Shown here in pieces: positions 44,673-64,000 of a DNA stretch of 64,000 bases. The position numbers and the translations under genes are program-made. Each line of letters opens with the position of its first letter. Position 1 is the first letter of the stretch. The notes below the pieces were generated by a model. That model saw only the letters and a program-made list of their open reading frames with translations. It had not been told where the DNA came from and made no database searches. Where the stretch lies: positions 277,600-341,599 of the forward strand of contig CBDBHR010000028.1 in the NCBI GenBank assembly GCA_965205865.1, given 5' to 3'. This DNA comes from a bacterium (GTDB lineage: Bacteria > SAR324 > NAC60-12).

Positions 44673-45441
44673 GGTCAGGCCGTGCGCCAGGAAAGCTGGC
44701 AAGAAATAGAGAGTGAAAGTCTCTTACTCGGTAAGGCAGTAACGACCCGCCGAGTCCCCGAGTCATGAGTGGTTATTCGCAAGGATAGGCGCTAAGCGTT
44801 GACAGGGGAGAACATAGGCTCGGTATTGAGCTCCGAAATCATAGTTTCAGGTGCTGACCTTGTAGTCTGGTGGGGAAGGCAACATCAACCGAAGGCGTTA
44901 GCGTGAGTCCCGGTCGAGCCTGGCGGAGTCAAAGACCCGGTGCATGTGTGGAAGTTTCTTGATCGGAACCTGGGAGATCCTGAAGACGACTGTCAACATT
45001 CTATTGGTAGTCGGATCGGGAAAATTAATAAATAACCCCGATATCTACGTCTTCAGGAAGTCGGACAAGTTCGTAGTAGCGATGAAGCGGCGAACAATGA
45101 GATCATTTGTAGAGAGTAATAATGCAAAGGAAATCAACGGAGCCTGTGGAGCAAAGGGACTTGGCTGAGAGGAATTCTGCTTGCCCTCCTGTGTTCGGAA
45201 CTCAGAGGCCGGTAAAATCAGAGAGCGGTTTAAGCAGGGTGCGCCAAACGGCAACGTCTGAGCGTCTGACTCGAAGCAGGAGCCGGATGCGTTAGCAGCG
45301 CATGTCCGGATCTGTACCGGAGGAATGACGAAAGGTGGCTGGAAACCACTATAAGTCAGTTCTTTACGGTGACTTTGATTAAATGAAAAGGGAGCAAAAA
45401 AACTAGACTCGTTCCTAATCAAACAATCAAAGGCCTGACCC
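44673..45441 (+). mobile_element. ~770-bp non-coding group-II-intron-like repeat, copy A
   Basis: Starts GGTCAGGCC|GUGCGCCAGGAAAGCUGGC (GUGCG, then a GAAA-tetraloop hairpin). Near the 3' end is GAGCCGGAUGCG-uuagca-GCGCAUGUCCGGAUCU, which is domain-V-like (AGC triad, 2-nt bulge). Ends ...AAAGGCCUGACC. The 9-nt termini are inverted repeats. Copies A, D and E are about 95% identical. Confidence 0.5.
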
Positions 45442-45738
45442 TGTTTCAAATCCCATCCATTGCCCTCTGCGCGTATTGGATTGCCGATCTTTCCTCACGT
45501 CCTCGGCCATACAAAGAATACGGTTTGCACTTCCCTTGAGGACGTCTTCATAATCTCGTAACATGTATGAAGACGGAATAGGACCAGAATATGAAACCTC
45601 CTTGATAACCCGAACAATATCACTACGAAATTCCTCAGGCAAAGAGTCGACGACTTTTTGTTGTGTCAAACTCAGTTTTTTTTCAGGAAAGTTATTACTC
45701 TGTGGTGTTTTCTCGTGTTTTTTTGAATTGCTCATCAT
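45427..45738 (-). pseudogene. DUF2335-like protein, C-terminally truncated by repeat copy A
   Basis: ...EVSYSGPIPSSYMLRDYEDVLKGSANRILCMAEDVRKDRQ... resembles the DUF2335 N-terminal region. The ORF runs straight into the 3' end of the 770-bp element and stops there. The expected C-terminal TM helices are missing. Confidence 0.4.
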
Positions 45739-46137
45739 ATTTATGGATTGCTGTAAACATGTCTTTTCCTACTTGACCCCAAACATCAGATATATCTTCT
45801 TCCTTGGAAGCCGGGAAATAATTATTTATCTCAATAGCATTAAATCCCTCTACAGCCATTTAAGAATCCGGCCCAGAATGCATCCGGTGTATAACTAGAT
45901 AATTTTGCGCGATCCCATTTTATTTTTTCCATAACATCATCTCCAAGATTATTAATCTCCCTATTATATTATGAATAATTCAAGATCATGATTATACAAT
46001 ATTTGTCAACAACGCAAAAGTTATGCCATCACATATTAGTGTAATGAATGCGAGAATAAATGTATTAATATTTAAATCCATTTTCATTAAAAAGCTTGAG
46101 GATATTTACACTCCACACCCTCAAGCCTATTCATTAA

Positions 46138-46554
46138 TCAATCACACCAGGATTCTCGTTTACCACCATCATATTTTCTAGTATAGTCATTTTCCAATAA
46201 AATATCGGAGAGGTTCTCACCATCAAGAAAAACATCACAGACCAAGCGAAAATATTTACCACGTTCGCAGTCTTTCAAATCGATCTTTGTTGCTTGAGAA
46301 TGTAATTCTTCGACAAAGTCCCTGACTTGTTTCGCACGTGATTTTTCAATATCACACTTTCCTCGTATTTCAGGAGTATCAATTCCCCTGATGCGGACAC
46401 TGATTTTATCTCCAAAAATTGCAAGAATATTTGCAATACTATATGTACAAGTATCTCCATCATAACATCGGTGCCATCGAACGTCGTAAAAATCCGCGGC
46501 ATCAACCATTAATGGAAATGGAAGTGCTAGTAAAAATAAAAGGAACATTCTCAT
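46138..46554 (-). CDS. Secreted thermonuclease (SNase/micrococcal nuclease-like) family protein
   Basis: Signal peptide MRMFLLFLLALPFPLMVDA. The ...CYDGDTCTY...VRIRGIDTPEIRGKC... Ca-binding and catalytic core is typical of SNase-like nucleases. Confidence 0.7.
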   Translation of the reverse strand: MRMFLLFLLALPFPLMVDAADFYDVRWHRCYDGDTCTYSIANILAIFGDKISVRIRGIDTPEIRGKCDIEKSRAKQVRDFVEELHSQATKIDLKDCERGKYFRLVCDVFLDGENLSDILLENDYTRKYDGGKRESWCD

Positions 46555-46723
46555 AACACATCTTTGATTGGGGTTGCAATTTCGACGCGCTTCTTCCGAA
46601 GGGCGTCGGGTTATTGCAACATGACCTAATCATAGGCGAAATGTCCCGATTATTTGTCCGAACCAAAGTGGCCAAACTTCAGTTCGAAATTGGACTTTTC
46701 TATTCATCAGGTAACCCGACAAA

Positions 46724-47664
46724 CTGACTAAGAACTTATCCTTTAATAACTTGAAAATTGGTATTTCCTGCATTATTTTTGTCATCATGTTCAACCATAA
46801 ACGCATGGAGGCTATATGGCAAAAGTACAGTCGTGGGAAGTATCTGATTCATTTTGGGCCAGAGTGGAGCCACTGATACCAAAACCCAAACGTGACCCGA
46901 ACAAGACCTACAAGCGCAAACCCGGTGGTGGTAGAAAGCCAATGCCTGCGCGCCAAATTTTCGAGGGAATTGTATATGTTTTGCGCACCGGTTGTCAATG
47001 GAGAGCCCTTCCCAAGGAAAAATATGGGAGTCCTAGTGCCATCCATGCTCATTTCATGCGTTGGAATGAAGCGGGTTTCTTTTTGTCGCTTTGGCAAGCC
47101 GGACTTGCCGAATATGATGAGATGGAAGGGATCTCCTGGAAATGGCAAAGCATAGACGGCACGACTGTCAAAGCCCCACTGGCTCAGGAAACCGTTGGTC
47201 GAAACCCGACTGACAGGGGAAAAAAAAGGGAGCAAGCGTCATTTGCTGGTTGACGGCCGTGGTGTCCCGCTGTCCCTCGTCGTAACCGGGGCGAACCGGC
47301 ATGATGTGACACAGTTGGAATTGGTCTTGGAGGAAATCGTCATTGCGCGGCCTGAGGGCATTGAACAACACCTGTGCGCAGACAAAGGCTACCACGGTGA
47401 GCCAGCATCACAGATCATTCGATCCAATGATTATGTGCCACATGTGAAAAAACGGGGTGAAGAGATTCAAGAAAAAAAAGCAAATCCCCAATACAGACCC
47501 AGAAGATGGGTCGTCGAGGTGAGCCATTCATGGTTCAACAGATTTCGCAAGATAATGGTCCGATTCGAAAAATATAATCAAACTTATCTCGCACTGCTTC
47601 AATTGGCTGCAGCTATCATAACTTACAGGAAAGTTAATGTTATTTAAGGATAAGTTCTAAGTCA
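46724..47664 (+). mobile_element. IS5-family (IS427/IS1031 group) insertion sequence, apparently intact, with programmed frameshift
   Basis: 26-bp imperfect TIRs: TGACTAAGAACTTATCCTTTAATAAC on the left, and the reverse complement TGACTTAGAACTTATCCTTAAATAAC on the right. orfA is 46816-47253 and orfB is 47195-47647; they overlap at the slippery run GGGGAAAAAAAAGGG (47217-47231). OrfB holds the DDE region (...HLLVDGRGVPLSLVVTGANRHD...CADKGYHG...). Confidence 0.8.
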
Positions 47665-47859
47665 TATTGCAATTTTAAACCTATGTTACGGACAGAGAGT
47701 GTCAAGGGATTATCTTCAGCAGGATACTAGAAGATATTCTGTAGGGATTCAGGTCTCTCCTACTGCGACCCATGCATTCCATTGAGCATTGTAAAGAGAC
47801 TTGGGAATCACAAAAAAATCAGCTTGGCATCTTGCCCATCGACTCCGGAAGACGTGGCA

Positions 47860-48040
47860 GGAAGATCAAGCGTTGTTCAAAGGGCCAGTTGAAGTGGATG
47901 AATCCTAAATTTGCGGCAAAGAAAAGAATAAGCATGCTTCCAAGAAATTGAAGAAAGGACGCGGCCCTGTTGGTAAAAGTGCCGTCGCGGGCATCAAAGA
48001 CCGGAGTACCAACAAAGTGACAGCCTAAAAAACAGAAAGT
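47860..48040 (+). pseudogene. IS1595-family (ISXO2-like) transposase internal fragment
   Basis: The in-frame translation ...PVEVDESYFGGKRKNKHASKKLKKGRGPVGKSAVAGIKDRSTNKV... matches the conserved EVDEtY.GG...GRG..GK..V.G..eR core of IS1595 transposases. It is flanked by stops. Confidence 0.4.
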
Positions 48041-48081
48041 TTATTGTTTGAAATTATTTATTTTTTGAAGGAGGATTTGAA

Positions 48082-48483
48082 ATGGATTTAAGGAAAATAT
48101 GTCAAAAATTGTATCTCATAATTTTTTTTTCGCTCATATTTATTTATCCGGTTTATTCTAATGAGGGGTTTATCGATTATAAAAATGAAATAACTGAATT
48201 TTCTGTTGTTGTCACTGAAGAATCAGAATTTATTGAATTTCATGTTGAAAATGACAGTTATTTTATCAAACTGCCAATCTCTGAATTGAGAAAGACAGAA
48301 CTCACATTGAGTGAAAATGGAATATCTGATGAGAACTTATCGAAAGTTGTGGAATATATCCTGATACAAACCTTCGACTCGGTTCGTGAGGAGTCATGGG
48401 TGGGAGTCAATGATACCGAACGCTTTCAGTTTCATGTTGGTTATTTCATAGAATATGAAATACAAGGTAGGAAAGGAAATTAG
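48082..48483 (+). CDS. Hypothetical secreted/membrane-anchored protein (AT-rich orphan)
   Basis: Intact 133-aa ORF with an N-terminal hydrophobic segment. GC is about 30%. No family recognised. Confidence 0.3.
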   Translation: MDLRKICQKLYLIIFFSLIFIYPVYSNEGFIDYKNEITEFSVVVTEESEFIEFHVENDSYFIKLPISELRKTELTLSENGISDENLSKVVEYILIQTFDSVREESWVGVNDTERFQFHVGYFIEYEIQGRKGN

Positions 48484-48611
48484 AGGATTCAATTCATTGA
48501 AGCTTACACGAATGCGATTCTGATTGAGGATCATTCAATTGATAATTACGGAAATTTTGTTACGACTCCAGAAAAAAAGAGTCGTTATGATGCAAAATTA
48601 AAGAAAGGGAG

Positions 48612-50292
48612 TCAGGCCGTGCGCCAGGAAAGCTGGCAAGAAATAGAGAGTGAAAGTCTCTTACTCGGTAAGGCAGTAACGACCCGCCGAGTCCCCGAGT
48701 CATGAGTGGTTATTCGCAAGGATAGGCGCTAAGCGTTGACAGGGGAGAACATAGGCTCGGTATTGAGCTCCGAAATCATAGTTTCAGGCGCTGACCTTGT
48801 GGTCTGGTGGGGAAGGCAATATCAACCGAAGGCGTTAGCGTGAGTCCCGGCTGAGCCTGGCGGAGTCAAAGACCCGGTGCATGTGTGGAAGTTTCTTGAT
48901 CGGAACCTGGGAGATCCTGAAGACGACTGTCAACATTCTATTGGTAGTCGGATCGGGAAAATTAATAAATAACCCCGATATCTACGTCTTCAGGAAGTCG
49001 GACGAGTTCGTAGTGCGCACTGGGCAGCGCATGATTCAGGTGGGTTCAAGTTCCACTCAGCCTGAGATCCCAGGCTGATATCCAAAAGCGGGGGTAATGC
49101 CTCGCTGGCCGGAATGTTTACCAGGGCGCCATCCTGGGCGCTTTAAGCACAATGGGAGGTCGAAAGGGCCAAATGCACCGAAGTGAACTTCCGGAGGACA
49201 GGGTGTCCACCGTGAGGTGGAATCTGAAGGGTTTGCGGAGAATCACCGGGTCGTAGTCAAGGAGGCTACTCCAGAGACGAACCGGTCGGCCAACAGCAGG
49301 GAATGGTTGAGCTTGCACTATGATGGCGAAAGCAGTTGGATTCCCCCCTGCAATACCAAGGTGTGTGCGGACGACACGGTGAGGAAGAATCATGAGTGAC
49401 CCCAGGAGGACTCAGGGCGTTCTTAGGTGGCACTAGGATAAGGGACCCTATAAGCGAAAGCGAAGTGGAAACCGAAGCGTGTTGAGTAGTCGGACCATCG
49501 AATAGTACCTGAAGCGTAGTGAGAGCTACGTGACCGAGGGATCGGCAGCAGAGTGAGCTGGGGAAGGCGATGGGCAGAGAAGGTTGGAATGAGAAAGGAA
49601 GTCAGATGAGTAAGGACAGTGAGGTGGAAAGTTCGGTAAGTGAAAGACCCAGAACTCATGGCCCGAGGAGACTGGCTGACTGGATCAATCTAACGGGAGC
49701 AAAGAAGGTTCACTCCTTAGTGGACAAGATTTACAAGAAGCTCTCCCCGAAACAAGATTATATGGGGAGTATCGGTTAGTAAATCTGATCTCACTAATTC
49801 CTTCGATTGGTCCCTTCGGCAAACGGACTTCTCTGTGAAAGCCGGATGCGGGAAAACTGCACGTCCGGTTTGGGCGGCGGACGGTGGCTAGCGGAAACGC
49901 GCCTCCTCCGACCCGACAGCGATGAAGCGGCGAACAATGAGATCATTTGTAGAGAGTAACAACGCAAAGGAAATCAACGGAGCCTGTGGAGCAAAGGGAC
50001 TTGGCTGAGAGGAATTCTGCTTGCCTTCCTGTGTTCGGAACTCAGAGGCCGGTAAAATCAGAGAGCGGTTTAAGCAGGGTGCGCCAAACGGCGAATCCGA
50101 ATCAACGTTTGAGCGTCTGACTCGAAGCAGGAGCCGGATGCGTTAGCAGCGCACGTCCGGATCTGTACCGGAGGAATGACGAAAGGTGGCTGGAAACCAC
50201 TATAAGTCAGTTCTTTACGGTGACTTTGATTAAATGAAAAGGGAGCAAAAAAACTAGACTCGTTCTTAATCAAATAATCAAAGGCCTGACCC
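48612..50292 (+). mobile_element. 770-bp repeat copy B/C interrupted by a nested ~905-bp group II intron
   Basis: 48612-49012 matches the 5' 400 bp of copy A. 49921-50292 matches the 3' 370 bp. The intervening 49013-49917 is unique to this copy. Confidence 0.6.
49013..49917 (+). ncRNA. Group II intron (ORF-degenerate) inserted into repeat copy B
   Basis: Starts GUGCGCAC. Near the 3' end is AAGCCGGAUGCGG-gaaaa-CUGCAC-GUCCGGUUU. This gives a domain V with AGC triad, AC bulge and G-U wobble at the triad G, close to the consensus GAGCCGUAUGCGAUGAAAGUCGCACGUACGGUUC. A domain-VI-like helix with a bulged A follows. An internal 69-aa ORF (49570-49779, ...RRLADWINLTGAKKVHSLVDKIYKK...) resembles the N-terminus of intron-encoded reverse transcriptases. 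Boundaries are uncertain to about 5 nt. Confidence 0.6.
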
Positions 50293-50413
50293 CCTTCCTC
50301 ATAATTCCTCCTTGGAAATAATTTTACCCAAAGGGTTGACAAAGGAGGAAACTTATGAGATAATAGAAATTAGTTAATTATTTACCCGCTCGTCTTTCCC
50401 TTGAGCGTTAAAA

Positions 50414-50456
50414 GTAAACGCTATGAAATCTCCAAATTTCATAGCGTTTTTTATTT
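50414..50456 (+). terminator. Rho-independent terminator
   Basis: AAACGCTATGAAAT-ctccaa-ATTTCATAGCGTTT is a 14-bp stem, followed by TTTTATTT. Confidence 0.7.
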
Positions 50457-50590
50457 GTCCGGTCACTCTACAATAAAATACTGAACAATACGAGTCATTT
50501 CTTTATCCTGTTATTCAGCATCTTGTCCTTGTTCAATCGAAGTTGATGCAATCTTAGAGATAGTCAGGCAATGATTACGACCTCTAGCTA

Positions 50591-52460
50591 GACCCTAGCC
50601 GAAAAGGGTTTCGAGAAATAGTAAATGTAACCAATTTGATTCTATTTGATTCTCTATTTGATTCAATATGACGAGAATAACGATTTATTTTGTTTTTTAT
50701 TCGCCCACATGAAACAGTTTTTATAGGGAAAAAATCTTTTTTTGGACATACTTTCCTCGCCCCTGCTCATATTTCACACTTCCCCCATTGAATATTCAGG
50801 CCGCTTGTTTGAGTTGTCTTTTTTTCAACTCAATCATTTTGCAAAAATTATAGGTTAAGAGCTTTTTCCAGCAACTCTGCCCGAACGTTTTCAATCCCTC
50901 TGCGCATAACTTGTCCGAAATGGAAACGATGCTTAAGATGAAACATCAACGACTCTGCAGCAGATCTTCCATTTCGTGATTCCAAATAGATTTCACTTTC
51001 CCATTCTTCAATCGGGGTCATCTTTTTTCCCAAACGCCCCACTAATACTAAAAACCTTAACGCCTTTGCCCATCCACTTTTCTCTGATCGCCTGATTGGC
51101 ATATCCATCATCAAGGCTCACTTCAGAGGGAATGGTGATGGTGCATCGCAAATGTTCAACAAGGGCAGGGTCGAGTTGCCCTGAATCAGCAGCATGGCCC
51201 TCCGGAGTAATTAACACGGAAATAAAACCATTTCCGCTCCTTCCTAATTGAGGCTTATATCCGATAAGCGCTTCTCGATCTCTTTTGAATATAAGCCGAG
51301 CTCTGATCGGAAAGACTCAATACTTTCTCAGTCGAAGGAACCTTCTTTTCTTCAAAAACTCTTTGATGACAGTAGATGATTCCGTTGCAAATTAGAAATA
51401 TCTTCATTCATCATTTCAATGAGGCGAATAACGCGTTTTCCGAGAAGGGGGGAGAAGAGCTTTTTGAGGCACGGTAATAAGGACAGTTTGCGATTTCTTT
51501 TAAAAATTTCCCAAAGCGCTATTGAGCTTTCTCAATAGCGGTCATTTGAAATGTTTTTAAAAGCTTCGTTTTACTGTCCTTTTTACCGTGTCTCAAAAGC
51601 CATCATCCCCCCTTAGAAAAGCTTATTCATCTCCTTGATGAGGAAATCAAAATTTCTTTCACTGATCTCAGCGATTCCAAATGTATCAAGGGAACGCCCT
51701 CGATGGTAGCTTCGCTCCGATCGAGACGAGTCATATTCGAGGGAATCGAGTAGGCCAAGCTGATATTTCCTTTTACAGAGGTGCTATCCAGTTTTTAATA
51801 TCAAAATCGTCCAACTCTTCATCGAGAACCATTCTGAATTCAGAGCAATCGAAAATAAACTGTTGAACTCTCGTTGATGACAGCATTGACCATTATCTGA
51901 AGGAGCCTTGTACTCGATCCCGGCATTGCCAATCCACGGTTGAGCAAAAGCAGATGCAAAGTGTGATTGACTCTGAAAGAATTATTTGGGCCGTTTGGGA
52001 TTTGATACTTCCTAAATGATCCCCGAATCATGATAAAAAGGTAAACTAAAAAAGCCGAATCCGAGGACAGATCTATTTCCAGTCCTGAGTTCTTCGGCTT
52101 CAATTCCTCATCTTCCATTACGGGAAGATGAGGAAGCCATGGATTCCGGGCTTCCTGCCAGTTTATCCTCTAAACGCTCTTTCTTTTTATTTCTTGCGTA
52201 TTTCTCCAAATCCTGTTCAATTTTGTCCAATATCTCCGGCTCTCGCTCAGACAATTGATCAAGTTCTGATAAGAAATTTTCAAATTCTGTATCAGGAGCG
52301 CTTAAAATAAGATGTTTTTCTGCTCGAATGAATGGTTTCATTTTGGGTGCCATAATTCTTAATATTGAAGTTATTCACAGTCATTTCAATGAATTATGGC
52401 ACTTTCAATAACCTCAAGTTTAAAGATATAATTCTAAAAAATACCTTTTCGGCTAGGATC
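50591..52460 (-). mobile_element. IS copy 1 (same family as 59323-61154), transposase pseudogenised
   Basis: Same TIRs (GACCCTAGCCGAAAAGG ... CCTTTTCGGCTAGGATC). TAGCTA is present on both flanks, consistent with a 6-bp TSD. The transposase frame is broken into at least 4 pieces (ORFs 50848-51114, 51008-51217, 51840-52118, 52108-52353) by indels. Confidence 0.7.
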
Positions 52461-52835
52461 TAGCTAAGTAATCCCGTAGAACTTTATCACAATATCACGC
52501 AATTTTCTGTGAATTGTTCCCAAGTATTAAGAAAAATGTAGGATCCCAGTCATTTCTTTACGATCTGGCACATATATTGCCTTGTTGACAACTCCTGTAT
52601 AATATTCTGCATTTGTAAACCCTCAAAAGGATAAAATATAAGGATCACAAAAAACTATAAGGGGTGACATGACAGAAAAAAAAATTACAAAAATTAAAAT
52701 TCATAATATGCCATTCGGAGGATTTTGGATTGATCCCAAAGACATCATCTTAAGTGATGAAGGTCAAAAAATAATCAAGCAAATAGCAAAAATATCTATT
52801 AAAAAAACTAAAGATAAATCTGAAGATTAAAACAA

Positions 52836-53534
52836 ATGGGATTCGGATTATTTTTTCTCTCTTTGCTGGGAGGATACATATTCAATAGATGGTGCAAACT
52901 AACCTCTTACTTCATTTATCGAGATACCGGTTACAATCTACTTTTCAAATCAGCATCAACTGGTGCTATATTAGCAATTATTTCTTACTTCATAATTCAA
53001 GGCTTCAATTTATCTCAATATAATATTTATGAATTAGAAAGAAACTTAGACATACCCAAATATACAATACTCTCTCTTCTATCATTTTTATTAGGACCAA
53101 TTTTATCAACACTCATCAATTCATTGAGTAAAATTAAAGAGATTGAAAAAAAAGCAATCTACAAATCCGAAAATTGGTTAGAAATATTATTCAGAGAATC
53201 TTCTGAAAATGGATTATTAATTGAGGTAACTCTAGAAAACGAGAAAGTATATGTGGGATGGATAATAAAAACTACCGATCCACGATTTAACAGACAATAT
53301 TTTCAAATGCAGCTCATCTTAAGTGGATACCGAAACGATGAACTCAAAATAGAATTCACCACCAATTATGCGAGTGTCTACAACAAATTAAATAAGTTGA
53401 TAGAAGAACAAAAAATACAAATCAATGAACAAATTCCAGACTTTAAAATAATTATCTCTATCTCATCCTTAAGAAGCGCCAGACCGTTCAACTACGAAAT
53501 ATACGAATTATTTGAAAATTTACATAATGAATAA
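52836..53534 (+). CDS. Hypothetical membrane protein (AT-rich island)
   Basis: 232 aa with 3-4 N-terminal TM helices and a soluble C-terminal domain. GC is about 30%. It is preceded by an unlisted 53-aa ORF at 52669-52830 (MTEKKITKIKIHNMPFGGFWIDPKDIILSDEGQKIIKQIAKISIKKTKDKSED). Confidence 0.35.
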   Translation: MGFGLFFLSLLGGYIFNRWCKLTSYFIYRDTGYNLLFKSASTGAILAIISYFIIQGFNLSQYNIYELERNLDIPKYTILSLLSFLLGPILSTLINSLSKIKEIEKKAIYKSENWLEILFRESSENGLLIEVTLENEKVYVGWIIKTTDPRFNRQYFQMQLILSGYRNDELKIEFTTNYASVYNKLNKLIEEQKIQINEQIPDFKIIISISSLRSARPFNYEIYELFENLHNE

Positions 53535-53639
53535 ATCCCTAAATCTCCAACCGGCCGAAGCCATATAAGCCGTGAATTTCAAACTAACTCGACGCCTTCA
53601 AAAAGGCGCCATTGCAACCATAAATGTGAGCAATGTGCT

Positions 53640-54050: not shown

Positions 54051-54178
54051 TATTATGGGAGCATCACAAAAAATATCCACCGCATATCGTAGGTGCTATG
54101 CGGTTCAGATAAGCCCCTAAATACATCATTCCGTTAAATTTTAACCTTTTTCAATTTGCGAGATATATTAGATGCAAG

Positions 54179-54391
54179 ATGTCTCGGAAAACGCGTTTGT
54201 ACGACCCTGGTACGCTTTGTCATGTGCTTCGAGGCAATGGGGACCAACGTATTTTTTTCGATGACAGCGACTCTCGTAGCCTTTATCAGTCTTCGATTGG
54301 AAATCTGCAACAATTCGGGAAGTGGCAAATGCTCTCAATCGAGATGATGCTACTTTCAGTCGTGGAGTGCATAAGTTGTGAGAAAGATTGA
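54179..54391 (+). pseudogene. REP-associated tyrosine transposase (RAYT / IS200-like Y1) N-terminal fragment
   Basis: MSRKTRLYDPGTLCHVLRGNGDQRIFFDDSDSRSLYQ matches the RAYT N-terminus (R.PR...PG.lyHV..RGN.rq.IF.DD.D). The ORF ends after 70 aa, before the catalytic Tyr region. A REP-like hairpin ACCGCATA-tcgtaggtgc-TATGCGGT is at 54078-54104, directly upstream. Confidence 0.5.
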
Positions 54392-54728
54392 AGGAATCCA
54401 CAAATCTCCAAAAGCGGTTAAAAAAACTTAACCTAAAAATGTTTTCTTAAATTCGCAAACTTGCAAGCCTGACCCCCTCACAAAAATGCAGTTTTCAAAC
54501 CATTCTCAACCATTTCCCAATCATACTCGATTCCATCTATTTGATTAAGAGAGTTTCCCTGACTTTTAATCTTGTCATGAGAATCGACGGAATTAAATGG
54601 ATTGATGCAAACAATTGAGCCTACACCAGCAAGTATATGTTGAATAATAGCATTCATATTTGTCTCCAAAGTTACTGAGTCTTATCTAACGATTTTTGAA
54701 GATAGTCAATTTAACCTATTAATATTTA

Positions 54729-55705: not shown

Positions 55706-55918
55706 ACGGATGTTTTCTTCATTTTTTGTCATCCTGTGGGAACCGAATGATCTTCTTGATTCCCATGAGTTTCTTGCTTAGGTAGCCCCCTTAGCTCAGA
55801 ATGACAGGTTTTTTGAAAAGTGAAATTTAAACCCGTTCAGAGTATAATCTTGAACAGTAATTTGAAATGTAATCAGAACAAAACGCTTCATCTGACTTAC
55901 ACCAAGAATATAGAAAGG

Positions 55919-56698
55919 GGTCAGGCTGTGCGCCAGGAAAGCTGGCAAGAAATAGAGAGTGAAAGTCTCTTACTCGGTAAGGCAGTAACGACCCGCCGAG
56001 TCCCCGAGTCATGAGTGGTTATTCGCAAGGATAGGCGCTAAGCGTTGACAGGGGAGAACATAGGCTCGGTATTGAGCTCCGAAATCATAGTTTCAAGTGC
56101 TGACCTTGTAGTCTGGTGGGGAAGGCAACATCAACCGAAGGCGTTAGCGTGAGTCCCGGTCGAGCCTGGCGGAGTCAAAGACCCGGCGCATGTGTGGAAG
56201 TTTCTTGATCGGAACCTGGGAGATCCTGAAGACGACTGTCAACATTCTATTGGTAGTCGGATCGGGAAAATTAATAAATAACCCCGATATCTACGTCTTC
56301 AGGAAGTCGGACAAGTTCGTAGTAGCGATGAAGCGGCGAACAATGAGATCATTTGTAGAGAGTAACAATGCAAAGGAAATCAACGGAGCCTGTGGAGCAA
56401 AGGGACTTGGCTGAGAGGAATTCTGCTTGCCCTCCTGTGTTCGGAACTCAGAGGCCGGTAAAATCAGAGAGCGGTTCAAGCAGGGTGCGCCAAACGGCAA
56501 TCCGAATCAACGTTTGAGCGTCTGACTCGAAGCAGGAGCCGGATGCGTTAGCAGCGCACGTCCGGATCTGTACCGGAGGAATGACGAAAGGTGGCTGGAA
56601 ACCACTATAAATCAGTTCTTTACGGTGACTTTGATTAAATGAAAAGGGAGCAAAAAACTGGACTCGTTCCTAATCAAATAATTAAAGGCCTGACCCCT
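55919..56698 (+). mobile_element. ~770-bp group-II-intron-like repeat, copy D
   Basis: Full-length copy, same orientation. It ends 28 bp upstream of the start codon of the 56727 lipoprotein gene. The 12-bp CTGACCCCTTTT is tandemly duplicated at the 3' junction. Confidence 0.5.
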
Positions 56699-56726
56699 TT
56701 TCTGACCCCTTTTTAGGAGAGCAGTT

Positions 56727-57917
56727 ATGCGTAAGCCTAATTTGAATAAAGTACGGAATTATTCAAATCGATGTTTGTTTGCTCTTATTTTTCTATCAGT
56801 TTTGAGCAGTTGCGACAGACTTAAAAACTTGGCCGGGCAACCGGAATCCGTATATGTTCAGCAAATTGAAGCCCTCTCCGCTCGGTTGAACGCGCTCGAA
56901 AGCGTGATTCAGCAACAGATACCTGTCTTGCAACAGATACGTGAAAACGTTACCCCGGCCGAGATATCCCCGCAGTGGGAGAATCAGCTCGAGCAACTGG
57001 AAAGCCAGCTTGCAAGCAGCGATAAATGGCCAAAGGATGCTGGTGAAGCAGGACAATTTTTCGAACAAACATCCAAACTCGTCACCGGTCTGCCGGTTTG
57101 GGCCGAGGCGAAGTACCTCCCGCGGCTTTCCGTGGTCCGTTGGGCTGCGATGTCTTTCAACAGTCTCAATCACCCGCGAGATGATAGCCAGTCTCTGGAT
57201 CAACTCGAACAACTCATCGACGGCATGCGCGATCTGGCTGATGTCAGTCCCGAGGGAGGTTCAGTGGATCTGGTTAGGCGATTGCGCGAAAATGCCGTAG
57301 AAATTGAGGACAAGACTACCAGACGGAGGGTCAAAGAAGTTGTTGAACAGGCGATTCAATACGTGGGAGATATCCCGGCTGACACTACAGATATTGCCGG
57401 CCTTTACGAGTTTCTGGAGTTGTATGAGAAGGACAATGATCATGCTGACGTCATCGATGTCGATGTCTCAGCCCTGCGGAAAAAGTTGTATGAAAAAATT
57501 GTAACACGTCAAGCCAATGACCGGGCAGCCAGTCTGCGCTCTCAATGGAAGAACGTAAAAGAATTGGCAAATGATCAACCTCAACCAGCGGTTTATGAAG
57601 TTGCCACCAGGACGCTGCTTCAACAGGTGATGTCAGCCCAGGCGGCCCTTGTTCTGGAAAGTATCGAGACACCAGTCTACAACGAGTTGCAGAAAGAACT
57701 ACGCGCTGCTGTGGAGACAATTGAATCCCAAGCTGAAGAGCGTCAAGCACTGGCCATGCGCGACTATCAACGCTGGGCCCTTGAGAAAATCAAGGTCTTT
57801 GAGGACCTCGAATATCAGGCGATCTCGGAAAAAGCGGACGATGAAGCCGATCGATGGCGCTGCGACGTGATGATGGCGGATGGATTGACTACTATCTGGA
57901 AGTTCAAGAAGCCATGA
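56727..57917 (+). CDS. Coiled-coil lipoprotein
   Basis: Lipobox LSSC after a signal peptide. Long Gln/Glu-rich helical protein of 396 aa. A short in-frame-shifted continuation (57917-58093) suggests possible frameshift or readthrough. Confidence 0.45.
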   Translation: MRKPNLNKVRNYSNRCLFALIFLSVLSSCDRLKNLAGQPESVYVQQIEALSARLNALESVIQQQIPVLQQIRENVTPAEISPQWENQLEQLESQLASSDKWPKDAGEAGQFFEQTSKLVTGLPVWAEAKYLPRLSVVRWAAMSFNSLNHPRDDSQSLDQLEQLIDGMRDLADVSPEGGSVDLVRRLRENAVEIEDKTTRRRVKEVVEQAIQYVGDIPADTTDIAGLYEFLELYEKDNDHADVIDVDVSALRKKLYEKIVTRQANDRAASLRSQWKNVKELANDQPQPAVYEVATRTLLQQVMSAQAALVLESIETPVYNELQKELRAAVETIESQAEERQALAMRDYQRWALEKIKVFEDLEYQAISEKADDEADRWRCDVMMADGLTTIWKFKKP

Positions 57918-58095
57918 TCAAGCATCTCCTGCCAATCAACGTTGTTTTATTGGATCTGCCCGTTCAAGAACGCTACCATCAAGCATTTCAAACAGGGTGG
58001 AAGAAATTGGATGGACGTGAAAATCAGACAACCGTGGCGGTATCTTCTGCTACCACCAAGAAGAAATCGCTCCGGGACATTCTGGAGGAATAATC

Positions 58096-59330
58096 ATGAG
58101 AATCCGTCAGATTACGAGCATCACGATCTTGTTGCTGTTGGCTGCAACGGCTTCTAATCTCGTTTGGGCTCTCACCCCCACTTCATCAATGGAGTTGCCC
58201 CTGACGCAGGGGGAGCAGGCCGCAAGACTCTGGCGGATTGCCAGTGCGGAGGTCGCTCGCAAGCTCTATCCGACTTTCGGTAGAGACGATCGAACCAAAG
58301 TTTTATTACCAGCGCAACTATCGCCTCCTGTGGATTGAAGCAACCCTCAATCAACGGATACTGTTGGCAGAAAAGATTGGTGTTACAAGGTGCCGCCAGG
58401 TTCGCTGCGGAACGAGGTTGGATTAAGATACTCGGTTTTCGGTATCGTGGCATCCAACAAGGGCCAGACTCCGTGTATTGGGATCAACGATCAGGTCGTC
58501 TCCGCGTACTGGAAGCGAAAGGAGGAACTGCCAAACCAATAAAGGCTTTCAATAGCTTGCAGGGTACGAATAAAAACGCGATCAGGTCTGCTAGATTTGT
58601 TCTTCGGTCATTAAAAGCAACCCTTATGGAAAAACATGCGGCTGCACTTGTAATTGTGGCTGCTCAGCAGGGTCGACTCGTTACAGGTGTAATAAATACT
58701 CTTCACAAGTTGGGAACTCCGGACACCCCCAAGCTGGCAGGCAATTGGGATTACGATTATGTAGGAAGGGAAGCAAGCACGATCGAGCAGAAATTAATCC
58801 GTAATAAACCCGAGGTTCGATCAGTCTTTCGGCATGCGCATAAGGAGCAATCATTTGCCATGCTGAAATACTGGGAAACCCGAAGACCGGCGAACATTGG
58901 ATTTGCTAGGAATGCGTACCAGCAGTCACTGATTGCCTGGTCCAAGTTCAACAATCCTCCCCTGAAAGGAAACGTTTTACCCTACATAAGGACTGGCTCG
59001 TCGATTCACAGAATAACACAGTCAACTACTCAACCAGGTATTTTGAGACTTTCCAAGGAGGGAGTTAGTAAGTTTGCCGGCAGATTGATTCTACCGGTCA
59101 TCCTTGGTGTGGAGGGATTACAATTTGCCATAGCATATCACCAATACGGCTTGGGTCGTATCAGTCAGCGTGATTTCTACCGTCGCACTACCGGACCCGC
59201 GATCGTCGCGGTTTTCACAGTCGGCGGAGCTATAGTTGGTGGGATTATTGGAATGCAAGGCGGAGGGATCACGGCAATCCCAGTTGCCTACACTGGTGCC
59301 AAAATAGGCGCGATCCTAGCTAGACCCTAG
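58096..59330 (+). pseudogene. Secreted protein with C-terminal glycine-zipper membrane segment, likely disrupted (frame changes near 58240-58340) and 3'-truncated by IS
   Basis: The signal peptide ORF (58096-58338), a third-frame ORF (58238-58426) and the main ORF (58335-59330) each continue plausible protein sequence across overlaps. The last two codons and the stop (AGA CCC TAG) lie inside the IS left end. The C-terminus GAIVGGIIGMQGGGITAIPVAYTGAKIGAIL is a Gly-zipper. Confidence 0.35.
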
Positions 59331-61154
59331 CCGAAAAGGGTTTCGAAAATAGTAAATGTAACCAATTTGATTCTATTTGATTCTCTATTTGATTCAATAT
59401 GACGAGAAAACGATTTTTTTGTTTTTTATTCGCCCACAGCACAGTTTTTATAGGGAAAAAATCTTTTTTGGACATACTTTCCTCGCCCCTGCTCATATTT
59501 CACACTCCCCCATTGAATATTCAGGCCGCTTGTTTGAGTTGTCTTTTTTTCAACTCAATCATTTTGCAAAAATTATAGGTTAATGCTTTTTCCAGCAACT
59601 CTGCCCGAACGTTTTCAATCCCTCTGCGCATAACTTGTCCGAAATGGAAACGATGCTTAAGATGAAACATCAACGACTCTGCAGCAGATCTTCCATTTCG
59701 TGATTCCAAATAGATTTCACTTTCCCATTCTTCAATCGGGGTCATCTTTTTTCCCTTTGCCCCACTAATACTAAAAACCTTAACGCCTTTGCCCATCCAC
59801 TTTTCTCTGATCGCCTGATTGGCATATCCATCATCAAGGCTCACTTCAGAGGGAATGGTGATGGTGCATCGCAAATGTTCAACAAGGGCAGGGTCGAGTT
59901 GCCCTGAATCAGCAGCATTGCCCTCCGGAGTAATTAACACGGAAATAAAACCATTTCCGCTCCTTCCTAATTGAGGCTTATATCCGATAAGCGCTTCTCG
60001 ATCTCCCTTTTGAATATAAGCCGAGCTCTGATCGGAAAGACTCAATACTTTCTCAGTAGAAGGAACCTTCTTTTCTTCAAAAACTCTTTGATGACAGTAG
60101 ATGATTACCCGTTGCAAATTAGAAATATCTTCATTCATCATTTCAATGAGGCGAATCAAACGCGTTTTCCGAGAAGGGGGGAGAAGAGCTTTTTGGGCAC
60201 GGATATCCACCTTTGCCATTTCTTTTAAAAATTTCCCATGAGCGCTTTGAGCTTTCTTCAATAGGGTTTTGTAATGTTTTTTTCGCTTCGTTTTACTGTC
60301 CTTTTTACCTGTCTCAAAAGCCATCATCTTAGAGAGCTTATTCATCTCCTTGATGAGGAAATCAAAATTTCTTTCACTGATCTCAGCGATTCCAAATGTA
60401 TCAAGGGAACGCCCTCGATGGTAGCTTCGCTCCACGAGACGAGTCAATATCGACGAATCAGTAGGCCAAGCTGTATTTCCTTTTACAGAGGTGCTATCCA
60501 GTTTTAAAATATCAAAATCGTCCAACTCTTCATCGAGAACCATTCGAATTTGAGCATCGAAAATAAACTGTCTGCTCTCGTTGCTGACAGCATTGACATT
60601 ATCAAGGATTGTACTCGCTCCCGGCATTTTCAATCCACGGTTGAGCAGAAGCAGATGCAGTGTGATTGACTCTGAAAGAAATATTTGGGCCGTTTGGGAT
60701 TTGATACTTCCTAAATATCCCCGAATCATCATAAAAAGGTAGACTAAAAAAGCCGACATCCGAGGACACCCTATTTCCAGCCTCAGTTCTTCCGGCTTCA
60801 ATTCCTCATCTTCTACGGGAAGATGAGGAAGCCATGGATTCCGGGCTTCCTGCCATCGTTTATCCTCTAAACGCTCTTTCTTTTTATTTCTTGCGTATTT
60901 CTCCAAATCCTGTTCAATTTTGTCCAATATCTCCGGCTCTCGCTCAGACAATTGATCAAGTTCTGATAAGAAATTTTCAAATTCTGTATCAGGAGCGCTT
61001 AAAATAAGATGTTTTTCTGCTCGAATGAATGGTTTCATTTTGGGTGCCATAATTCTTAATATTGAAGTTATTCACAGTTATTTCAATGAATTATGGCACT
61101 TTTTAACCTCAAGTTTAAAGATATAATTCTAAAAAATACCTTTTCGGCTAGGAT
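59323..61154 (-). mobile_element. IS copy 2 (1.83 kb), intact; DDE transposase of IS4 superfamily (IS1634-like?)
   Basis: TIRs GACCCTAGCCGAAAAGG / GATCCTAGCCGAAAAGG(rc). The transposase CDS 59521-61050 (509 aa) carries candidate DDE-K residues (LKLDSTSV; SLDDGYANQ; RSAAESLMFHLK). TAGCTA sits on both sides. Confidence 0.75.
59521..61050 (-). CDS. DDE transposase (509 aa)
   Basis: Intact ORF, 100% identical to 61360-62889 apart from one substitution (I15F). Motifs as listed for IS copy 2 (59323-61154). Confidence 0.8.
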   Translation of the reverse strand: MAPKMKPFIRAEKHLILSAPDTEFENFLSELDQLSEREPEILDKIEQDLEKYARNKKKERLEDKRWQEARNPWLPHLPVEDEELKPEELRLEIGCPRMSAFLVYLFMMIRGYLGSIKSQTAQIFLSESITLHLLLLNRGLKMPGASTILDNVNAVSNESRQFIFDAQIRMVLDEELDDFDILKLDSTSVKGNTAWPTDSSILTRLVERSYHRGRSLDTFGIAEISERNFDFLIKEMNKLSKMMAFETGKKDSKTKRKKHYKTLLKKAQSAHGKFLKEMAKVDIRAQKALLPPSRKTRLIRLIEMMNEDISNLQRVIIYCHQRVFEEKKVPSTEKVLSLSDQSSAYIQKGDREALIGYKPQLGRSGNGFISVLITPEGNAADSGQLDPALVEHLRCTITIPSEVSLDDGYANQAIREKWMGKGVKVFSISGAKGKKMTPIEEWESEIYLESRNGRSAAESLMFHLKHRFHFGQVMRRGIENVRAELLEKALTYNFCKMIELKKRQLKQAA

Positions 61155-61160
61155 CTAGCT

Positions 61161-62994
61161 AGACCCTAGCCGAAAAGGGTTTCGAAAATAGTAAATGTAA
61201 CCAATTTGATTCTATTTGATTCTCTATTTGATTCAATATGACGAGAAAACGATTTTTTTGTTTTTTATTCGCCCACAGCACAGTTTTTATAGGGAAAAAA
61301 TCTTTTTTGGACATACTTTCCTCGCTCCTGCTCATATTTCACACTCCCCCATTGAATATTCAGGCCGCTTGTTTGAGTTGTCTTTTTTTCAACTCAATCA
61401 TTTTGCAAAAATTATAGGTTAATGCTTTTTCCAGCAACTCTGCCCGAACGTTTTCAATCCCTCTGCGCATAACTTGTCCGAAATGGAAACGATGCTTAAG
61501 ATGAAACATCAACGACTCTGCAGCAGATCTTCCATTTCGTGATTCCAAATAGATTTCACTTTCCCATTCTTCAATCGGGGTCATCTTTTTTCCCTTTGCC
61601 CCACTAATACTAAAAACCTTAACGCCTTTGCCCATCCACTTTTCTCTGATCGCCTGATTGGCATATCCATCATCAAGGCTCACTTCAGAGGGAATGGTGA
61701 TGGTGCATCGCAAATGTTCAACAAGGGCAGGGTCGAGTTGCCCTGAATCAGCAGCATTGCCCTCCGGAGTAATTAACACGGAAATAAAACCATTTCCGCT
61801 CCTTCCTAATTGAGGCTTATATCCGATAAGCGCTTCTCGATCTCCCTTTTGAATATAAGCCGAGCTCTGATCGGAAAGACTCAATACTTTCTCAGTAGAA
61901 GGAACCTTCTTTTCTTCAAAAACTCTTTGATGACAGTAGATGATTACCCGTTGCAAATTAGAAATATCTTCATTCATCATTTCAATGAGGCGAATCAAAC
62001 GCGTTTTCCGAGAAGGGGGGAGAAGAGCTTTTTGGGCACGGATATCCACCTTTGCCATTTCTTTTAAAAATTTCCCATGAGCGCTTTGAGCTTTCTTCAA
62101 TAGGGTTTTGTAATGTTTTTTTCGCTTCGTTTTACTGTCCTTTTTACCTGTCTCAAAAGCCATCATCTTAGAGAGCTTATTCATCTCCTTGATGAGGAAA
62201 TCAAAATTTCTTTCACTGATCTCAGCGATTCCAAATGTATCAAGGGAACGCCCTCGATGGTAGCTTCGCTCCACGAGACGAGTCAATATCGACGAATCAG
62301 TAGGCCAAGCTGTATTTCCTTTTACAGAGGTGCTATCCAGTTTTAAAATATCAAAATCGTCCAACTCTTCATCGAGAACCATTCGAATTTGAGCATCGAA
62401 AATAAACTGTCTGCTCTCGTTGCTGACAGCATTGACATTATCAAGGATTGTACTCGCTCCCGGCATTTTCAATCCACGGTTGAGCAGAAGCAGATGCAGT
62501 GTGATTGACTCTGAAAGAAATATTTGGGCCGTTTGGGATTTGATACTTCCTAAATATCCCCGAATCATCATAAAAAGGTAGACTAAAAAAGCCGACATCC
62601 GAGGACACCCTATTTCCAGCCTCAGTTCTTCCGGCTTCAATTCCTCATCTTCCACGGGAAGATGAGGAAGCCATGGATTCCGGGCTTCCTGCCATCGTTT
62701 ATCCTCTAAACGCTCTTTCTTTTTATTTCTTGCGTATTTCTCCAAATCCTGTTCAATTTTGTCCAATATCTCCGGCTCTCGCTCAGACAATTGATCAAGT
62801 TCTGATAAGAAATTTTCAAATTCTGTATCAGGAGCGCTTAAAAAAAGATGTTTTTCTGCTCGAATGAATGGTTTCATTTTGGGTGCCATAATTCTTAATA
62901 TTGAAGTTATTCACAGTGATTTCAATGAATTATGGCACTTTTTAACCTCAAGTTTAAAGATATAATTCTAAAAAATACCTTTTCGGCTAGGATC
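61161..62994 (-). mobile_element. IS copy 3, intact, in direct tandem with copy 2 (6-bp TAGCTA spacer)
   Basis: Identical TIRs. The right flank is GAGCTA. It truncates an upstream-facing gene whose 3' remnant (...HFAADYMLDWHYREFDEHQRLVVNAAVEKHYGLNPGS*) lies at 62998-63111. Confidence 0.75.
61360..62889 (-). CDS. DDE transposase (509 aa), second identical copy
   Basis: Same as 59521-61050. Confidence 0.8.
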   Translation of the reverse strand: MAPKMKPFIRAEKHLFLSAPDTEFENFLSELDQLSEREPEILDKIEQDLEKYARNKKKERLEDKRWQEARNPWLPHLPVEDEELKPEELRLEIGCPRMSAFLVYLFMMIRGYLGSIKSQTAQIFLSESITLHLLLLNRGLKMPGASTILDNVNAVSNESRQFIFDAQIRMVLDEELDDFDILKLDSTSVKGNTAWPTDSSILTRLVERSYHRGRSLDTFGIAEISERNFDFLIKEMNKLSKMMAFETGKKDSKTKRKKHYKTLLKKAQSAHGKFLKEMAKVDIRAQKALLPPSRKTRLIRLIEMMNEDISNLQRVIIYCHQRVFEEKKVPSTEKVLSLSDQSSAYIQKGDREALIGYKPQLGRSGNGFISVLITPEGNAADSGQLDPALVEHLRCTITIPSEVSLDDGYANQAIREKWMGKGVKVFSISGAKGKKMTPIEEWESEIYLESRNGRSAAESLMFHLKHRFHFGQVMRRGIENVRAELLEKALTYNFCKMIELKKRQLKQAA

Positions 62995-63164
62995 GAGCTA
63001 TTCCTGTTCATTTTGCAGCCGATTATATGTTGGATTGGCATTACCGGGAATTCGATGAACATCAACGTCTGGTCGTTAATGCGGCAGTTGAAAAACACTA
63101 TGGCTTGAACCCCGGATCATAGTTCAACACTGACTCGTGATCATACCTTTACCCTGAAACGGGG

Positions 63165-63931
63165 ACAGGCCGTGCGCCAGGAAAGCTGGCAAGAAATAGA
63201 GAGTGAAAGTCTCTTACTCGGTAAGGCAGTAACGACCCGCCGAGTCCCCGAGTCATGAGTGGTTATTCGCAAGGATAGGCGCTAAGCGTTGACAGGGGAG
63301 AACATAGGCTCGGTATTGAGCTCCGAAATCATAGTTTCAGGCGCTGACCTTGTGGTCTGGTGGGGAAGGCAATATCAACCGAAGGCGTTAGCGTGAGTCT
63401 CGGCTGAGCCTGGCGCAGTCAAAGACCCGGTGCATGTGTGGAAGTTTCTTGATCGGAACCTGGGAGATCCTGAAGACGACTGTCAACATTCTATTGGTAG
63501 TCGGATCGGGAAAATTAATAAATAACCCCGATATCTACGTCTTCAGGAAGTCGGACAAGTTCGTAGTAGCGATGAAGCGGCGAACAATGAGATCATTTGC
63601 AGAGAGTAACAATGCAAAGGAAATCAACGGAGCCTGTGGAGCAAAAGGACTTGGCTGAGAGGAATTCTGCTTGCCCTCCTGTGTTCGGAACTCAGAGGCC
63701 GGTAAAATCAGAGAGCGGTTTAAGCAGGGTGCGCCAAACGGCAACGTTTGAGCGTCTGACTCGAAGCAGGAGCCGGATGCGTTAGCAGCGCACGTCCGGA
63801 TCTGTACCGGAGGAATGACGAAAGGTGGCTGGAAACCACTATAAGTCAGTTTTTTACGGTGACTTTGATTAAATGAAAAGGGAGCAAAAAAATTGGACTC
63901 GTTCCTAATCAAATAATCAATGGCCTGACCC
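63165..63931 (+). mobile_element. ~770-bp group-II-intron-like repeat, copy E
   Basis: Full-length copy with the same orientation and termini (..ACAGGCC|GUGCGCC ... AAUGGCCUGACC). Confidence 0.5.
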
Positions 63932-64000
63932 CCTTCCAAGTTCGTGAAAGTTTGGGTCAAATATTTTCTCATCTTTTCGATCAGAAGGAAAAGATGAAGA

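Follow-up and report, generated by a model that had tools for sequence, protein, structure and literature searches.

What kind of element is the non-coding repeat of about 770 bp that recurs on one strand of a 64,000-nucleotide stretch of a SAR324 bacterial contig (CBDBHR010000028.1, positions 277,600 to 341,599; the whole stretch is called the window below), and how did its copies come to lie where they are? A first-pass annotation of the window left the answer between a degenerate or unusual group II intron without an open reading frame (ORF) and an element resembling a miniature inverted-repeat transposable element (MITE) that had captured intron sequence. The analysis described here makes it highly probable that the copies are non-autonomous, ORF-deleted group II introns of the RF02005 lineage which spread by retrohoming into MITE-like repeats, so that each repeat unit consists of an intron and the small palindromic element that it occupies.

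A direct-repeat search recovers the repeat on the plus strand at about 44672, 48609, 55918 and 63162, in agreement with the length, strand and positions first described. The five copies announced in the first-pass annotation are in fact four, as its own list already had it, and its estimate of about 95% identity gives way to pairwise values of 98.0-99.0% between the intron copies. Every copy starts, as had been noted, with ...GGTCAGGC(C/T) followed at the boundary by GTGCGCCAGGAAAGCTGGC, and the element holds no full-length ORF. The introns, with their domain V (DV), domain VI (D6) and exon-binding site 1 (EBS1) where these were located, are as follows.

44682..45373, plus strand: intron copy 1, an ORF-less group II intron of 692 nt (RF02005, 164.2 bits at 44716-44938; RF00029, 30.1 bits at 45278-45373), with EBS1 AGUCUG at 44864-44869, DV at 45280-45312, D6 at 45316-45373 and a putative branch A at 45366.
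48619..50224, plus strand: intron copy 2, the outer member of a twintron, 702 nt without its insert (RF02005, 164.6 bits at 48653-48875; RF00029, 31 bits at 50129-50224).
55928..56629, plus strand: intron copy 3, 702 nt (RF02005, 158.4 bits; RF00029, 31.9 bits).
63172..63863, plus strand: intron copy 4, 692 nt (RF02005, 163.1 bits; RF00029, 32 bits).

The identification as group II introns rests in the first place on covariance models, the check that had been proposed for the element. A window-wide Rfam scan matches all four copies to RF02005 (group-II-D1D4-6) at 158-165 bits against a threshold of 49 bits, with E about 1e-47 and alignments spanning model positions 1-225 of 225, and a permissive threshold (the family threshold of RF00029 is 40 bits) adds for every copy a DV/D6 match that scores 30-32 bits and lies about 70 nt short of the repeat end. 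All copies begin with the group II start GUGCG, and the DV-like helix with an AGC triad and a 2-nt bulge is present, as both had been reported. This helix, GAGCCGGAUGCG...GCGCACGUCCGGAUC, can be aligned to the DV of ORF-containing relatives. Over the first 300 nt from GUGCG the copies are about 68-71% identical to proteobacterial plasmid introns annotated ltrA, and the Cupriavidus (L002) and Roseibium (L003) introns score 195-201 bits with RF02005 and 39-40 bits with RF00029. Direct inspection of the Cupriavidus intron shows that its DV, its linker UGU, its D6, its bulged A and its GAY end all align to the window, the D6 end ...CUUU-A-CGGUGAC being homologous to ...CCCU-A-CCGCGAU in Cupriavidus, with the bulged A 7-8 nt from an ...AY end. 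The earlier remark that the G of the catalytic triad faces A is correct as an observation, but the same G.A occurs in the ORF-containing relatives and is therefore a trait of the lineage rather than a mark of decay. The catalytic elements are intact in copies 2-4, and a compensatory change in the D6 hairpin of loci L006 and L010, from GUGG/CCAC to GUGA/UCAC, is further evidence of constraint on the RNA. Judged on these features, the element is a genuine group II ribozyme without an ORF, for which self-splicing is predicted. Folding the complete intron by minimum free energy (z = -3.5) failed to recover the known domains, and that fold was set aside.

The extent of the intron within the repeat was determined by comparison with the same intron at other sites. 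A spurious antisense ORF that runs from domain IV into the 3' flank (45045-45449, minus strand) served, as a protein, as the probe for relatives; it has 18 variants in NCBI/ENA long-read metagenome assemblies (related contigs ENA ERZ25072670, ERZ26167216, ERZ25766727 and ERZ25068966), and nine loci were fetched. When representative genomes were searched with a 22-mer of the 3' flank, the sole match was a fortuitous one that lies upstream of a Bacillus gene; in JGI metagenomes this 22-mer had no match at first, and a tolerant split pattern then returned two contigs. Similarity among the sites ends exactly at GTGCG and GGTGAC. The RF00029 alignment gives the same 3' end, ...CUUUACGGUGAC, preceded by a bulged A at a distance of 7 nt, and shows that D6 is enlarged. 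The intron thus ends at ...ACGGTGAC, which in copy 1 is position 45373 and lies about 68 nt short of the repeat end, and the repeat as a whole outruns the intron by 10-16 nt on the 5' side and about 68-75 nt on the 3' side.

The tail of 68 nt might instead be read as a 3' extension of the intron of the type found in Bacillus cereus B.c.I4, with the true 3' splice site after GGCCTGACCC. It is conserved downstream of D6 in all four window copies, and introns with 3' extensions of 53-56 nt are known (PMC1865049, PMC2691827). However, at loci L004, L006, L008 and L009 the sequence that directly follows GGTGAC is unrelated to this tail and different at each site, and the tail is also found joined straight to the 5' motif with no intron between them. 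These two observations refute the proposal, which has practically no probability left.

The tail belongs to a separate palindromic repeat of about 90 nt, so that what had been taken for a 3' part of the intron longer than a normal domain VI lies outside the intron altogether. The 9-nt terminal inverted repeats of the first-pass annotation are real to the extent that the end ...AAAGGCCTGACCC is inversely complementary to the 5' flank, but they lie outside the intron and are longer than 9 nt, forming a stem of 18-22 bp once the intron is removed. The two halves of this host repeat are as follows.

44666..44681, plus strand (equivalents 48603-48618, 55912-55927 and 63156-63171): left arm of the palindromic repeat, which is also the 5' exon and homing motif; (GAAAn)GGGGTCAGGCY precedes each copy, both in the window and in other genomes.
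45374..45447, plus strand (equivalents 50225-50299, 56630-56701 and 63864-63938): loop and right arm of the palindromic repeat, which form the 3' exon; common to the four window copies and absent after the same intron elsewhere.

Joined to each other, the left and right arms give a near-perfect hairpin (-21.6 kcal/mol, z = -8.3) in which the tip is followed by TTTGATTA. Hairpins of this kind without an intron occur in three other contigs: in L011, GAAAGGGGTCAGGCT is joined directly to TTTGATTAAATG...AAAGGCCTGACCC, and L013 and L014, from the tolerant pattern scan of two JGI metagenome samples, each have an empty hairpin and no intron sequence on the contig. An orphan half-hairpin is present in L010. 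Each of the four window introns occupies the left arm of a hairpin copy, which is why the composite resembles a 770-bp element with inverted termini and a 3' tail of 68 nt. As a side observation, the right end of the hairpin shows a tandem duplication of 12-13 nt, both in copy 3 (56689-56712; CTGACCCCTTTT twice) and in the empty hairpin of L013/L014 (CTGACCCCTTTCC twice).

Intron and hairpin do not vary together. Among the four window copies there are 9 segregating sites in the 78 nt of the hairpin core as against 20 in the 692 nt of the intron (p = 0.0013), and the mean pairwise difference is 6.0% in the core and 1.6% in the intron. Informative sites in domain I group copies 1 and 3 apart from 2 and 4, the indel at the deletion junction groups 2 with 3 and 1 with 4, and a site in the flank groups 1 with 2 and 3 with 4. 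The differing variability and the discordant groupings indicate that the intron and its host repeat have different histories and that recombination has taken place among the copies. Beyond the hairpin of about 90 nt, the sequence flanking the window copies is unrelated from copy to copy, so they are not segmental duplications.

The arm tip that the intron occupies is not confined to the hairpin. A motif search over 169 kb of window and related sequence finds GGGGTCAGGCT followed by TGCAAGTTTGCAAA in inverted pairs about 300 nt apart, which are the 25-bp inverted repeats of a second element of 310-370 bp, each beginning with the tip and continuing with TGCAAGTTTGCAAA. This element is empty in L010 and L012, and in L006/L007 its left repeat is occupied by the intron, with the same geometry as in the hairpins; the peptides ...QTC, continuing SHRKEL, in P0001 and P0003 represent further intron copies in this type of repeat. 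The window holds one relic of the family.

54134..54483, minus strand: one-ended remnant of the second MITE-like family, 82-95% identical to the 314-bp element at L010 1473-1786; its target is unoccupied and reads GGGGTCAGGCT followed by TGCAAGTTTGCGAA on the minus strand at 54476.

The hairpin and the 310-370-bp element have only the outer ~11 nt in common; this tip is the target of the intron and, on sequence grounds, what one transposase would recognise. Target-site duplications were found neither around the four window copies nor around the empty hairpins nor in the second family, and for this reason "MITE-like" describes the form of these elements only.

A transposase acting on such tips raises the possibility that the hairpin and intron together are the mobile unit, an occupied MITE-like element being moved through its GGGGTCAGGC tips with the intron as a passenger. 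In the window every one of the four hairpins is occupied, the arm that holds the intron, as defined by the asymmetric loop, does not vary among five independent occupied hairpins, and the tip shared by the two families is suggestive of a single transposase, all of which this explanation would account for. It does not account for the empty hairpins, or for the ORF-less intron at sites that are not hairpins, with sharp boundaries exactly at the intron ends; variation is about 4-fold higher in the flanks than in the intron, with variants that are not congruent, target-site duplications are lacking around every copy, and about 169 kb of related sequence contains no transposase gene with these ends. 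When the 770-bp unit as a whole is compared with a MITE, its inverted repeats agree and the absence of duplications does not, and forms with the intron only and with the hairpin only exist. Movement of the composite is accordingly improbable. The first-pass idea of a MITE-like element that captured an intron named the two components correctly but reversed the direction: the intron invades the repeat, because the tip of the repeat arm is its homing site.

The absence of an ORF is explained by an intact parent. At L009 4601->2645 there is an intron of 1957 nt, about 96% identical to the window copies, in which intron positions 1-571 and 571-692 of the window form are separated by 1264 nt. Its ORF (intron positions 441-1853) is intact and encodes 470 aa with a YADD motif; the protein scores 350 bits with NCBIfam TIGR04416 (group II intron reverse transcriptase (RT)/maturase; cut-off 300), and its best solved relative is PDB 7UIM, a group II intron RT/maturase. 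No endonuclease domain is seen in it, the Pfam record containing only RVT_1 and the protein only RT and maturase regions. Sample ERZ25072670 is the source of L009 and also of L011 and L012, the flanks of which are orthologous to window loci. The beginning of the same ORF survives in the window.

45122..45253, plus strand (equivalents begin at 49962, 56368 and 63612): remnant of the ORF for the intron-encoded protein, consisting of the start codon and the first 44 codons.

In a tblastn search, residues 1-44 of the L009 protein match every window copy at 91-95% identity. (A blastx search for remnants with the Cupriavidus ltrA product had given a spurious match, since that annotation extends upstream into the ribozyme, and the L009 protein was used instead.) On this sequence comparison, the window copies are an ORF-deletion derivative of an RT/maturase-encoding intron, and a single deletion of ~1.26 kb in domain IV took away the RT ORF, except for its first ~44 codons and a few nucleotides at its end, and left domains I-III, V and VI untouched. 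The element is thus not the "degenerate or unusual" intron first proposed but a normal intron from which the ORF has been cleanly deleted. Copies 2 and 3 retain 10 nt (AATCCGAATC) at the deletion junction, which copies 1 and 4 have lost between short CAA repeats.

That the shortened form itself has moved is indicated by the distribution of its junction. The deletion junction at intron position ~571 is common to the window copies, L004/L005, L006/L007, L008, a second copy on L009 (L009b), L010 and L012. The N-termini of the antisense-ORF variants, which are translated 3' exons, distinguish about 14 sites among the 18 variants; at least two of these sites carry the full-length ORF-containing intron (P0015, and P0016, which is the L009 parent), and most of the others have the ORF-less junction. 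The recurrence of one junction at ~14 sites implies that the ORF-less form was mobile in the past. At the other sites, too, the 5' exon reads (G)GGGTCAGGCY, L006 having TTTATCAGGCT and the parent GGGTTCGGACC. Since the 3' exons differ from site to site and the 5' motif is kept, the intron ends are fixed and the 5' motif is a recognition sequence.

The recognition can be followed at the level of base pairs. The last 6 nt of the 5' exon motif, as intron-binding site 1 (IBS1), pair with EBS1, and the variable 9-nt loop of domain I, GU(G/A)GUCUGG, allows a 6-bp pairing with CAGGCC, CAGGCU, CGGACC and CAGGUC. In copy 3 the A-variant of EBS1 is paired with an IBS1 ending in T, and at site 4 a G in EBS1 faces ...C in the window, while the L011 ortholog combines A with ...U, a compensating pair. 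The excised intron RNA would recognise DNA ending in (GAAAn)GGGGTCAGGCY, mainly through the 6-bp EBS1-IBS1 pairing, and would then reverse-splice at the target and be copied into DNA; splicing of an inserted copy would leave hairpin exons that read GGGGTCAGGCC joined to TTTGATTA. The short form would spread by such retrohoming with RT/maturase supplied in trans from full-length copies, and mobilisation in trans is most likely the way in which the ORF-less form has moved, as judged from the sequences of the two forms.

The orientation of the copies bears on how they were primed. Targets on the plus strand of the window are occupied in 4/4 cases and those on the minus strand (the four right arms and the site at 54476) in 0/5 (p = 0.008, with sites that are not fully independent), and GC skew is positive on the plus strand, which also carries the majority of the long ORFs. 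RmInt1, an intron whose protein has no endonuclease, inserts into the lagging-strand template (PMC8914252). By analogy, the uniform orientation here probably results from insertion into the lagging-strand template, the replication fork providing the priming for an endonuclease-less intron. Two bolder variants may be mentioned, although they are together unlikely. One would be a two-way chimera, in which the small element is mobilised as DNA by a transposase that recognises GGGGTCAGGC tips and carries the intron along, while the intron, whose splicing depends on a protein supplied in trans, re-forms the hairpin at the RNA level and spreads independently to every new copy of the tip; the other would have a hairpin extruded from single-stranded DNA at the fork aid target recognition outside class IIC.

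Several observations weigh against retrohoming of ORF-less introns into these repeats and have to be set beside the evidence for it. Apart from the remnants, tblastn with the L009 protein finds no RT sequence in the 64-kb window, so that the supply in trans is argued from a contig of the same sample: the ORF-containing parent was located in the metagenome sample of the window-orthologous contigs and not in the window itself. The RF00029 scores for DV and D6 are below threshold (30-32 against 40), which is attributable to the enlarged D6, and consideration of the literature and the domain content led to no assignment among intron classes C, D, E and F. Copy 1 has a C->U change in the DV bulge and an A.C mismatch at the EBS1/IBS1 position beside the splice site, and the intron fragment and truncated gene that flank it do not form contiguous sequence, which indicates that at least some copies were rearranged by recombination rather than freshly inserted. 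Finally, the occupation of all four window hairpins, in the same arm relative to the asymmetric loop, would fit duplication of an already occupied hairpin too. Protein supply in trans, present-day splicing competence, fork-dependent priming and DNA-level mobility of the small repeats are the parts of the retrohoming account that we infer.

The flanks of copy 1 are made up of the following two features.

44441..44681, plus strand: possible 5' fragment of a third group II intron, adjoining copy 1 upstream; begins GTGCGCCTGGG; RF02001 match of 21.7-23.9 bits, weak against a threshold of 32.
45427-45738, minus strand: truncated DUF2335 ORF adjoining copy 1, matching Pfam profile positions 1-37 of 50.

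The 3' part of the upstream fragment supplies the GGGTCAGGCC motif of copy 1. The insertion had been said to truncate the DUF2335 gene; copy 1 does adjoin the truncated ORF, but the gene does not continue on its other side, where the flank looks like an intron fragment, and the idea that the copy splits the gene was dropped. An earlier statement that another copy lies just upstream of a lipoprotein gene applies to copy 3, which is separated by about 25 bp from the start of a downstream ORF whose N-terminus resembles a lipobox (...LSVLSSC).

Recombination between copies is directly visible in L012 2460-3080, a single-read contig in which the 5' flank of copy 2 is joined to the 3' flank of copy 4 through one internally deleted intron, which implies that in part of the population recombination between intron copies has deleted ~14.5 kb. 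Such events lend some substance to a further alternative, that the copies are inert relics, no longer splicing or moving, which were multiplied only by segmental duplication or homologous recombination. To the L012 recombinant may be added the IS (insertion sequence) copies, truncated genes and intron fragments of the region, the internal-deletion derivatives (~310 nt in L010, and that of L012), one of which has its AGC triad changed to GGC, and the non-contiguous flanks of copy 1. Inertness is nevertheless difficult to reconcile with the identity of 98-99% and the intact catalytic elements of copies 2-4, or with the compensatory D6 change and the covariation of EBS1 and IBS1; segmental duplication would not leave unrelated sequence outside the ~90-nt hairpin, and a single junction at about 14 sites speaks for mobility in the past. 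This alternative is therefore very unlikely as well, and the reading as retrohoming introns with a domain IV deletion is retained.

Copy 2, which had been described merely as interrupted, contains a different group II intron nested within it.

49017..49917 (+/-2 nt), plus strand: nested, unrelated ORF-less group II intron of 901 nt in domain IV of copy 2; starts GTGCGCAC (GTGCG).

The RF00029 match of the nested intron (44.2 bits, threshold 40, at 49837-49917) ends exactly at the junction, and there is a weak RF02001 match of 27.5 bits at 49206-49395; no similarity of the nested to the outer intron was found. Relative to the other copies the insertion occupies 49015-49917, after outer position 394-396, with a 2-nt irregularity at the junction. 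By these sequence features copy 2 is a twintron, the second intron having its own 5' and 3' ends.

Other derivatives of the intron were observed in the related contigs. In L008 (10324-13047, minus strand) the intron is interrupted after position 400 by three tandem units of exactly 908 nt, and L011 4897-5804 has one copy of the same unit, the insertion in both lying 4-6 nt downstream of that in copy 2. The unit is a different element from the nested intron of copy 2; it starts TGAGCAGCC... and has the GAGAGUGAAAGUCUCUC motif in common with its host intron. At the gathering threshold it gives no match to Rfam, and an atypical or permuted element related to group II introns is a possible identification. 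L010 4607-4910 (minus strand) is a mini-derivative of ~310 nt, composed of intron positions 1-104 and 488-692 and sitting in a hairpin, and its triad change from AGC to GGC makes it probably dead. An ORF-less mini-intron of ~500 nt and RF02005 type (79 bits; DV/D6 41.8 bits) lies at L008 13540-14041 (plus strand), on the opposite strand from an intron copy and directly upstream of it.

The wider window is chromosomal DNA of a Gram-negative bacterium, as its KdtA, LpxC, delta-type GspC, citrate synthase and LeuA genes indicate, and its 44-64 kb segment is rich in mobile DNA, with IS copies, an IS5-like ORF and truncated genes. An IS of 1839 bp with a 509-aa DDE_Tnp_1 transposase (minus strand) is present in two perfect tandem copies at 59316-62941 and as a partial third copy at 50861-52405. 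Elsewhere, at least six tandem 171-bp repeats (16430-17584), 87-97% identical to the reference copy, lie inside an ORF of 918 aa (15863-18619) and encode a 57-aa repeat protein; the ORF at 26412-27773 joins a response-regulator receiver (residues 14-159) to LpxC (168-445), an unusual fusion for a lipid A enzyme; and an ORF of 1514 aa (28386-32930) combines carboxyltransferase alpha- and beta-like regions with biotin carboxylase and biotin carrier, making up a single-chain acyl-CoA carboxylase. At 34304-34524 there are two adjacent 108-nt direct repeats, 99% identical and 113 nt apart from start to start.

As a whole, the locus is a known type of selfish element in a slightly unusual host site and involves no new mechanism. 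What is particular to it is that the homing site lies in the repeat tips of small palindromic elements, with the result that a retroelement comes to resemble a repeat flanked by terminal inverted repeats (TIRs); the practical point is that a TIR-flanked non-coding repeat may be a retroelement in a MITE-like host. Once present, the intron copies serve as substrates for recombination, as in the population variant that lost about 14.5 kb between two of them. No work combining group II introns with repetitive extragenic palindromic (REP) elements or MITEs was among the 20 best-ranked of the 98 papers that a literature search listed, which is not proof of absence.

Several known systems have individual features in common with the window. 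IStrons (PMC4227781) likewise combine a self-splicing ribozyme with a DNA-transposon-like element, in their case a group I intron with an IS200/605-type transposon, but they are fixed chimeras with a transposase gene, whereas the parts here are separate, the ribozyme is of group II and there is no transposase. Group IIC introns, including those at attC sites, are tied to palindromic DNA structures in intergenic DNA as the window introns are, but they insert just 3' of a hairpin, that of a terminator or of attC, and are characterised by a short EBS1 and the lack of EBS2; the present intron inserts inside the 5' arm, has an EBS1 of 6 bp and also uses non-hairpin sites. The nested introns of Methanosarcina acetivorans (PMC4424553) are similar in homing into introns outside host genes, in their ORF-less members and in their deletion and reshuffling by homologous recombination, although the window has only one level of nesting, with an inner intron unrelated to the outer and a junction 2 nt off. 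RmInt1 of Sinorhizobium meliloti, likened here by features and not by sequence, also has a protein without an endonuclease, a homing site inside a repeated mobile element (ISRm2011-2; PMC1802570, PMC8914252) and a lagging-strand-template bias with uniform orientation; it differs in that its ORF is kept and that its target lies inside an IS rather than at the tips of MITE-like hairpin repeats.

The closest parallel is TeI3 of Thermosynechococcus elongatus (Mohr, Ghanem and Lambowitz 2010; PMC2882425), in which a single deletion of the domain IV ORF, with break-points that do not differ between copies and with N- and C-terminal ORF remnants retained, produced a short form that was spread by a related protein in trans and gave rise to twintrons. 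The correspondence with the window extends to each of the structural features: one domain IV deletion with the same break-points throughout, terminal ORF remnants, ORF-less copies that outnumber their ORF-containing parents, insertion sites with good EBS/IBS pairing, and twintrons in domain IV. In TeI3 mobilisation is by the protein of a related intron acting in trans, and mobilisation in trans is what we infer here. The two differ in lineage, in that the TeI proteins have D and En domains and the parent here has RT and maturase regions only, and in the homing site, which in the present case is the inverted-repeat tip of small palindromic elements. Intron lineages whose deleted, non-autonomous form has become more numerous than the parent have been regarded as models for intron multiplication in early eukaryotes (PMC2882425), and the locus described here represents a second, unrelated lineage with TeI3-like behaviour, in an uncultured Gram-negative bacterium.

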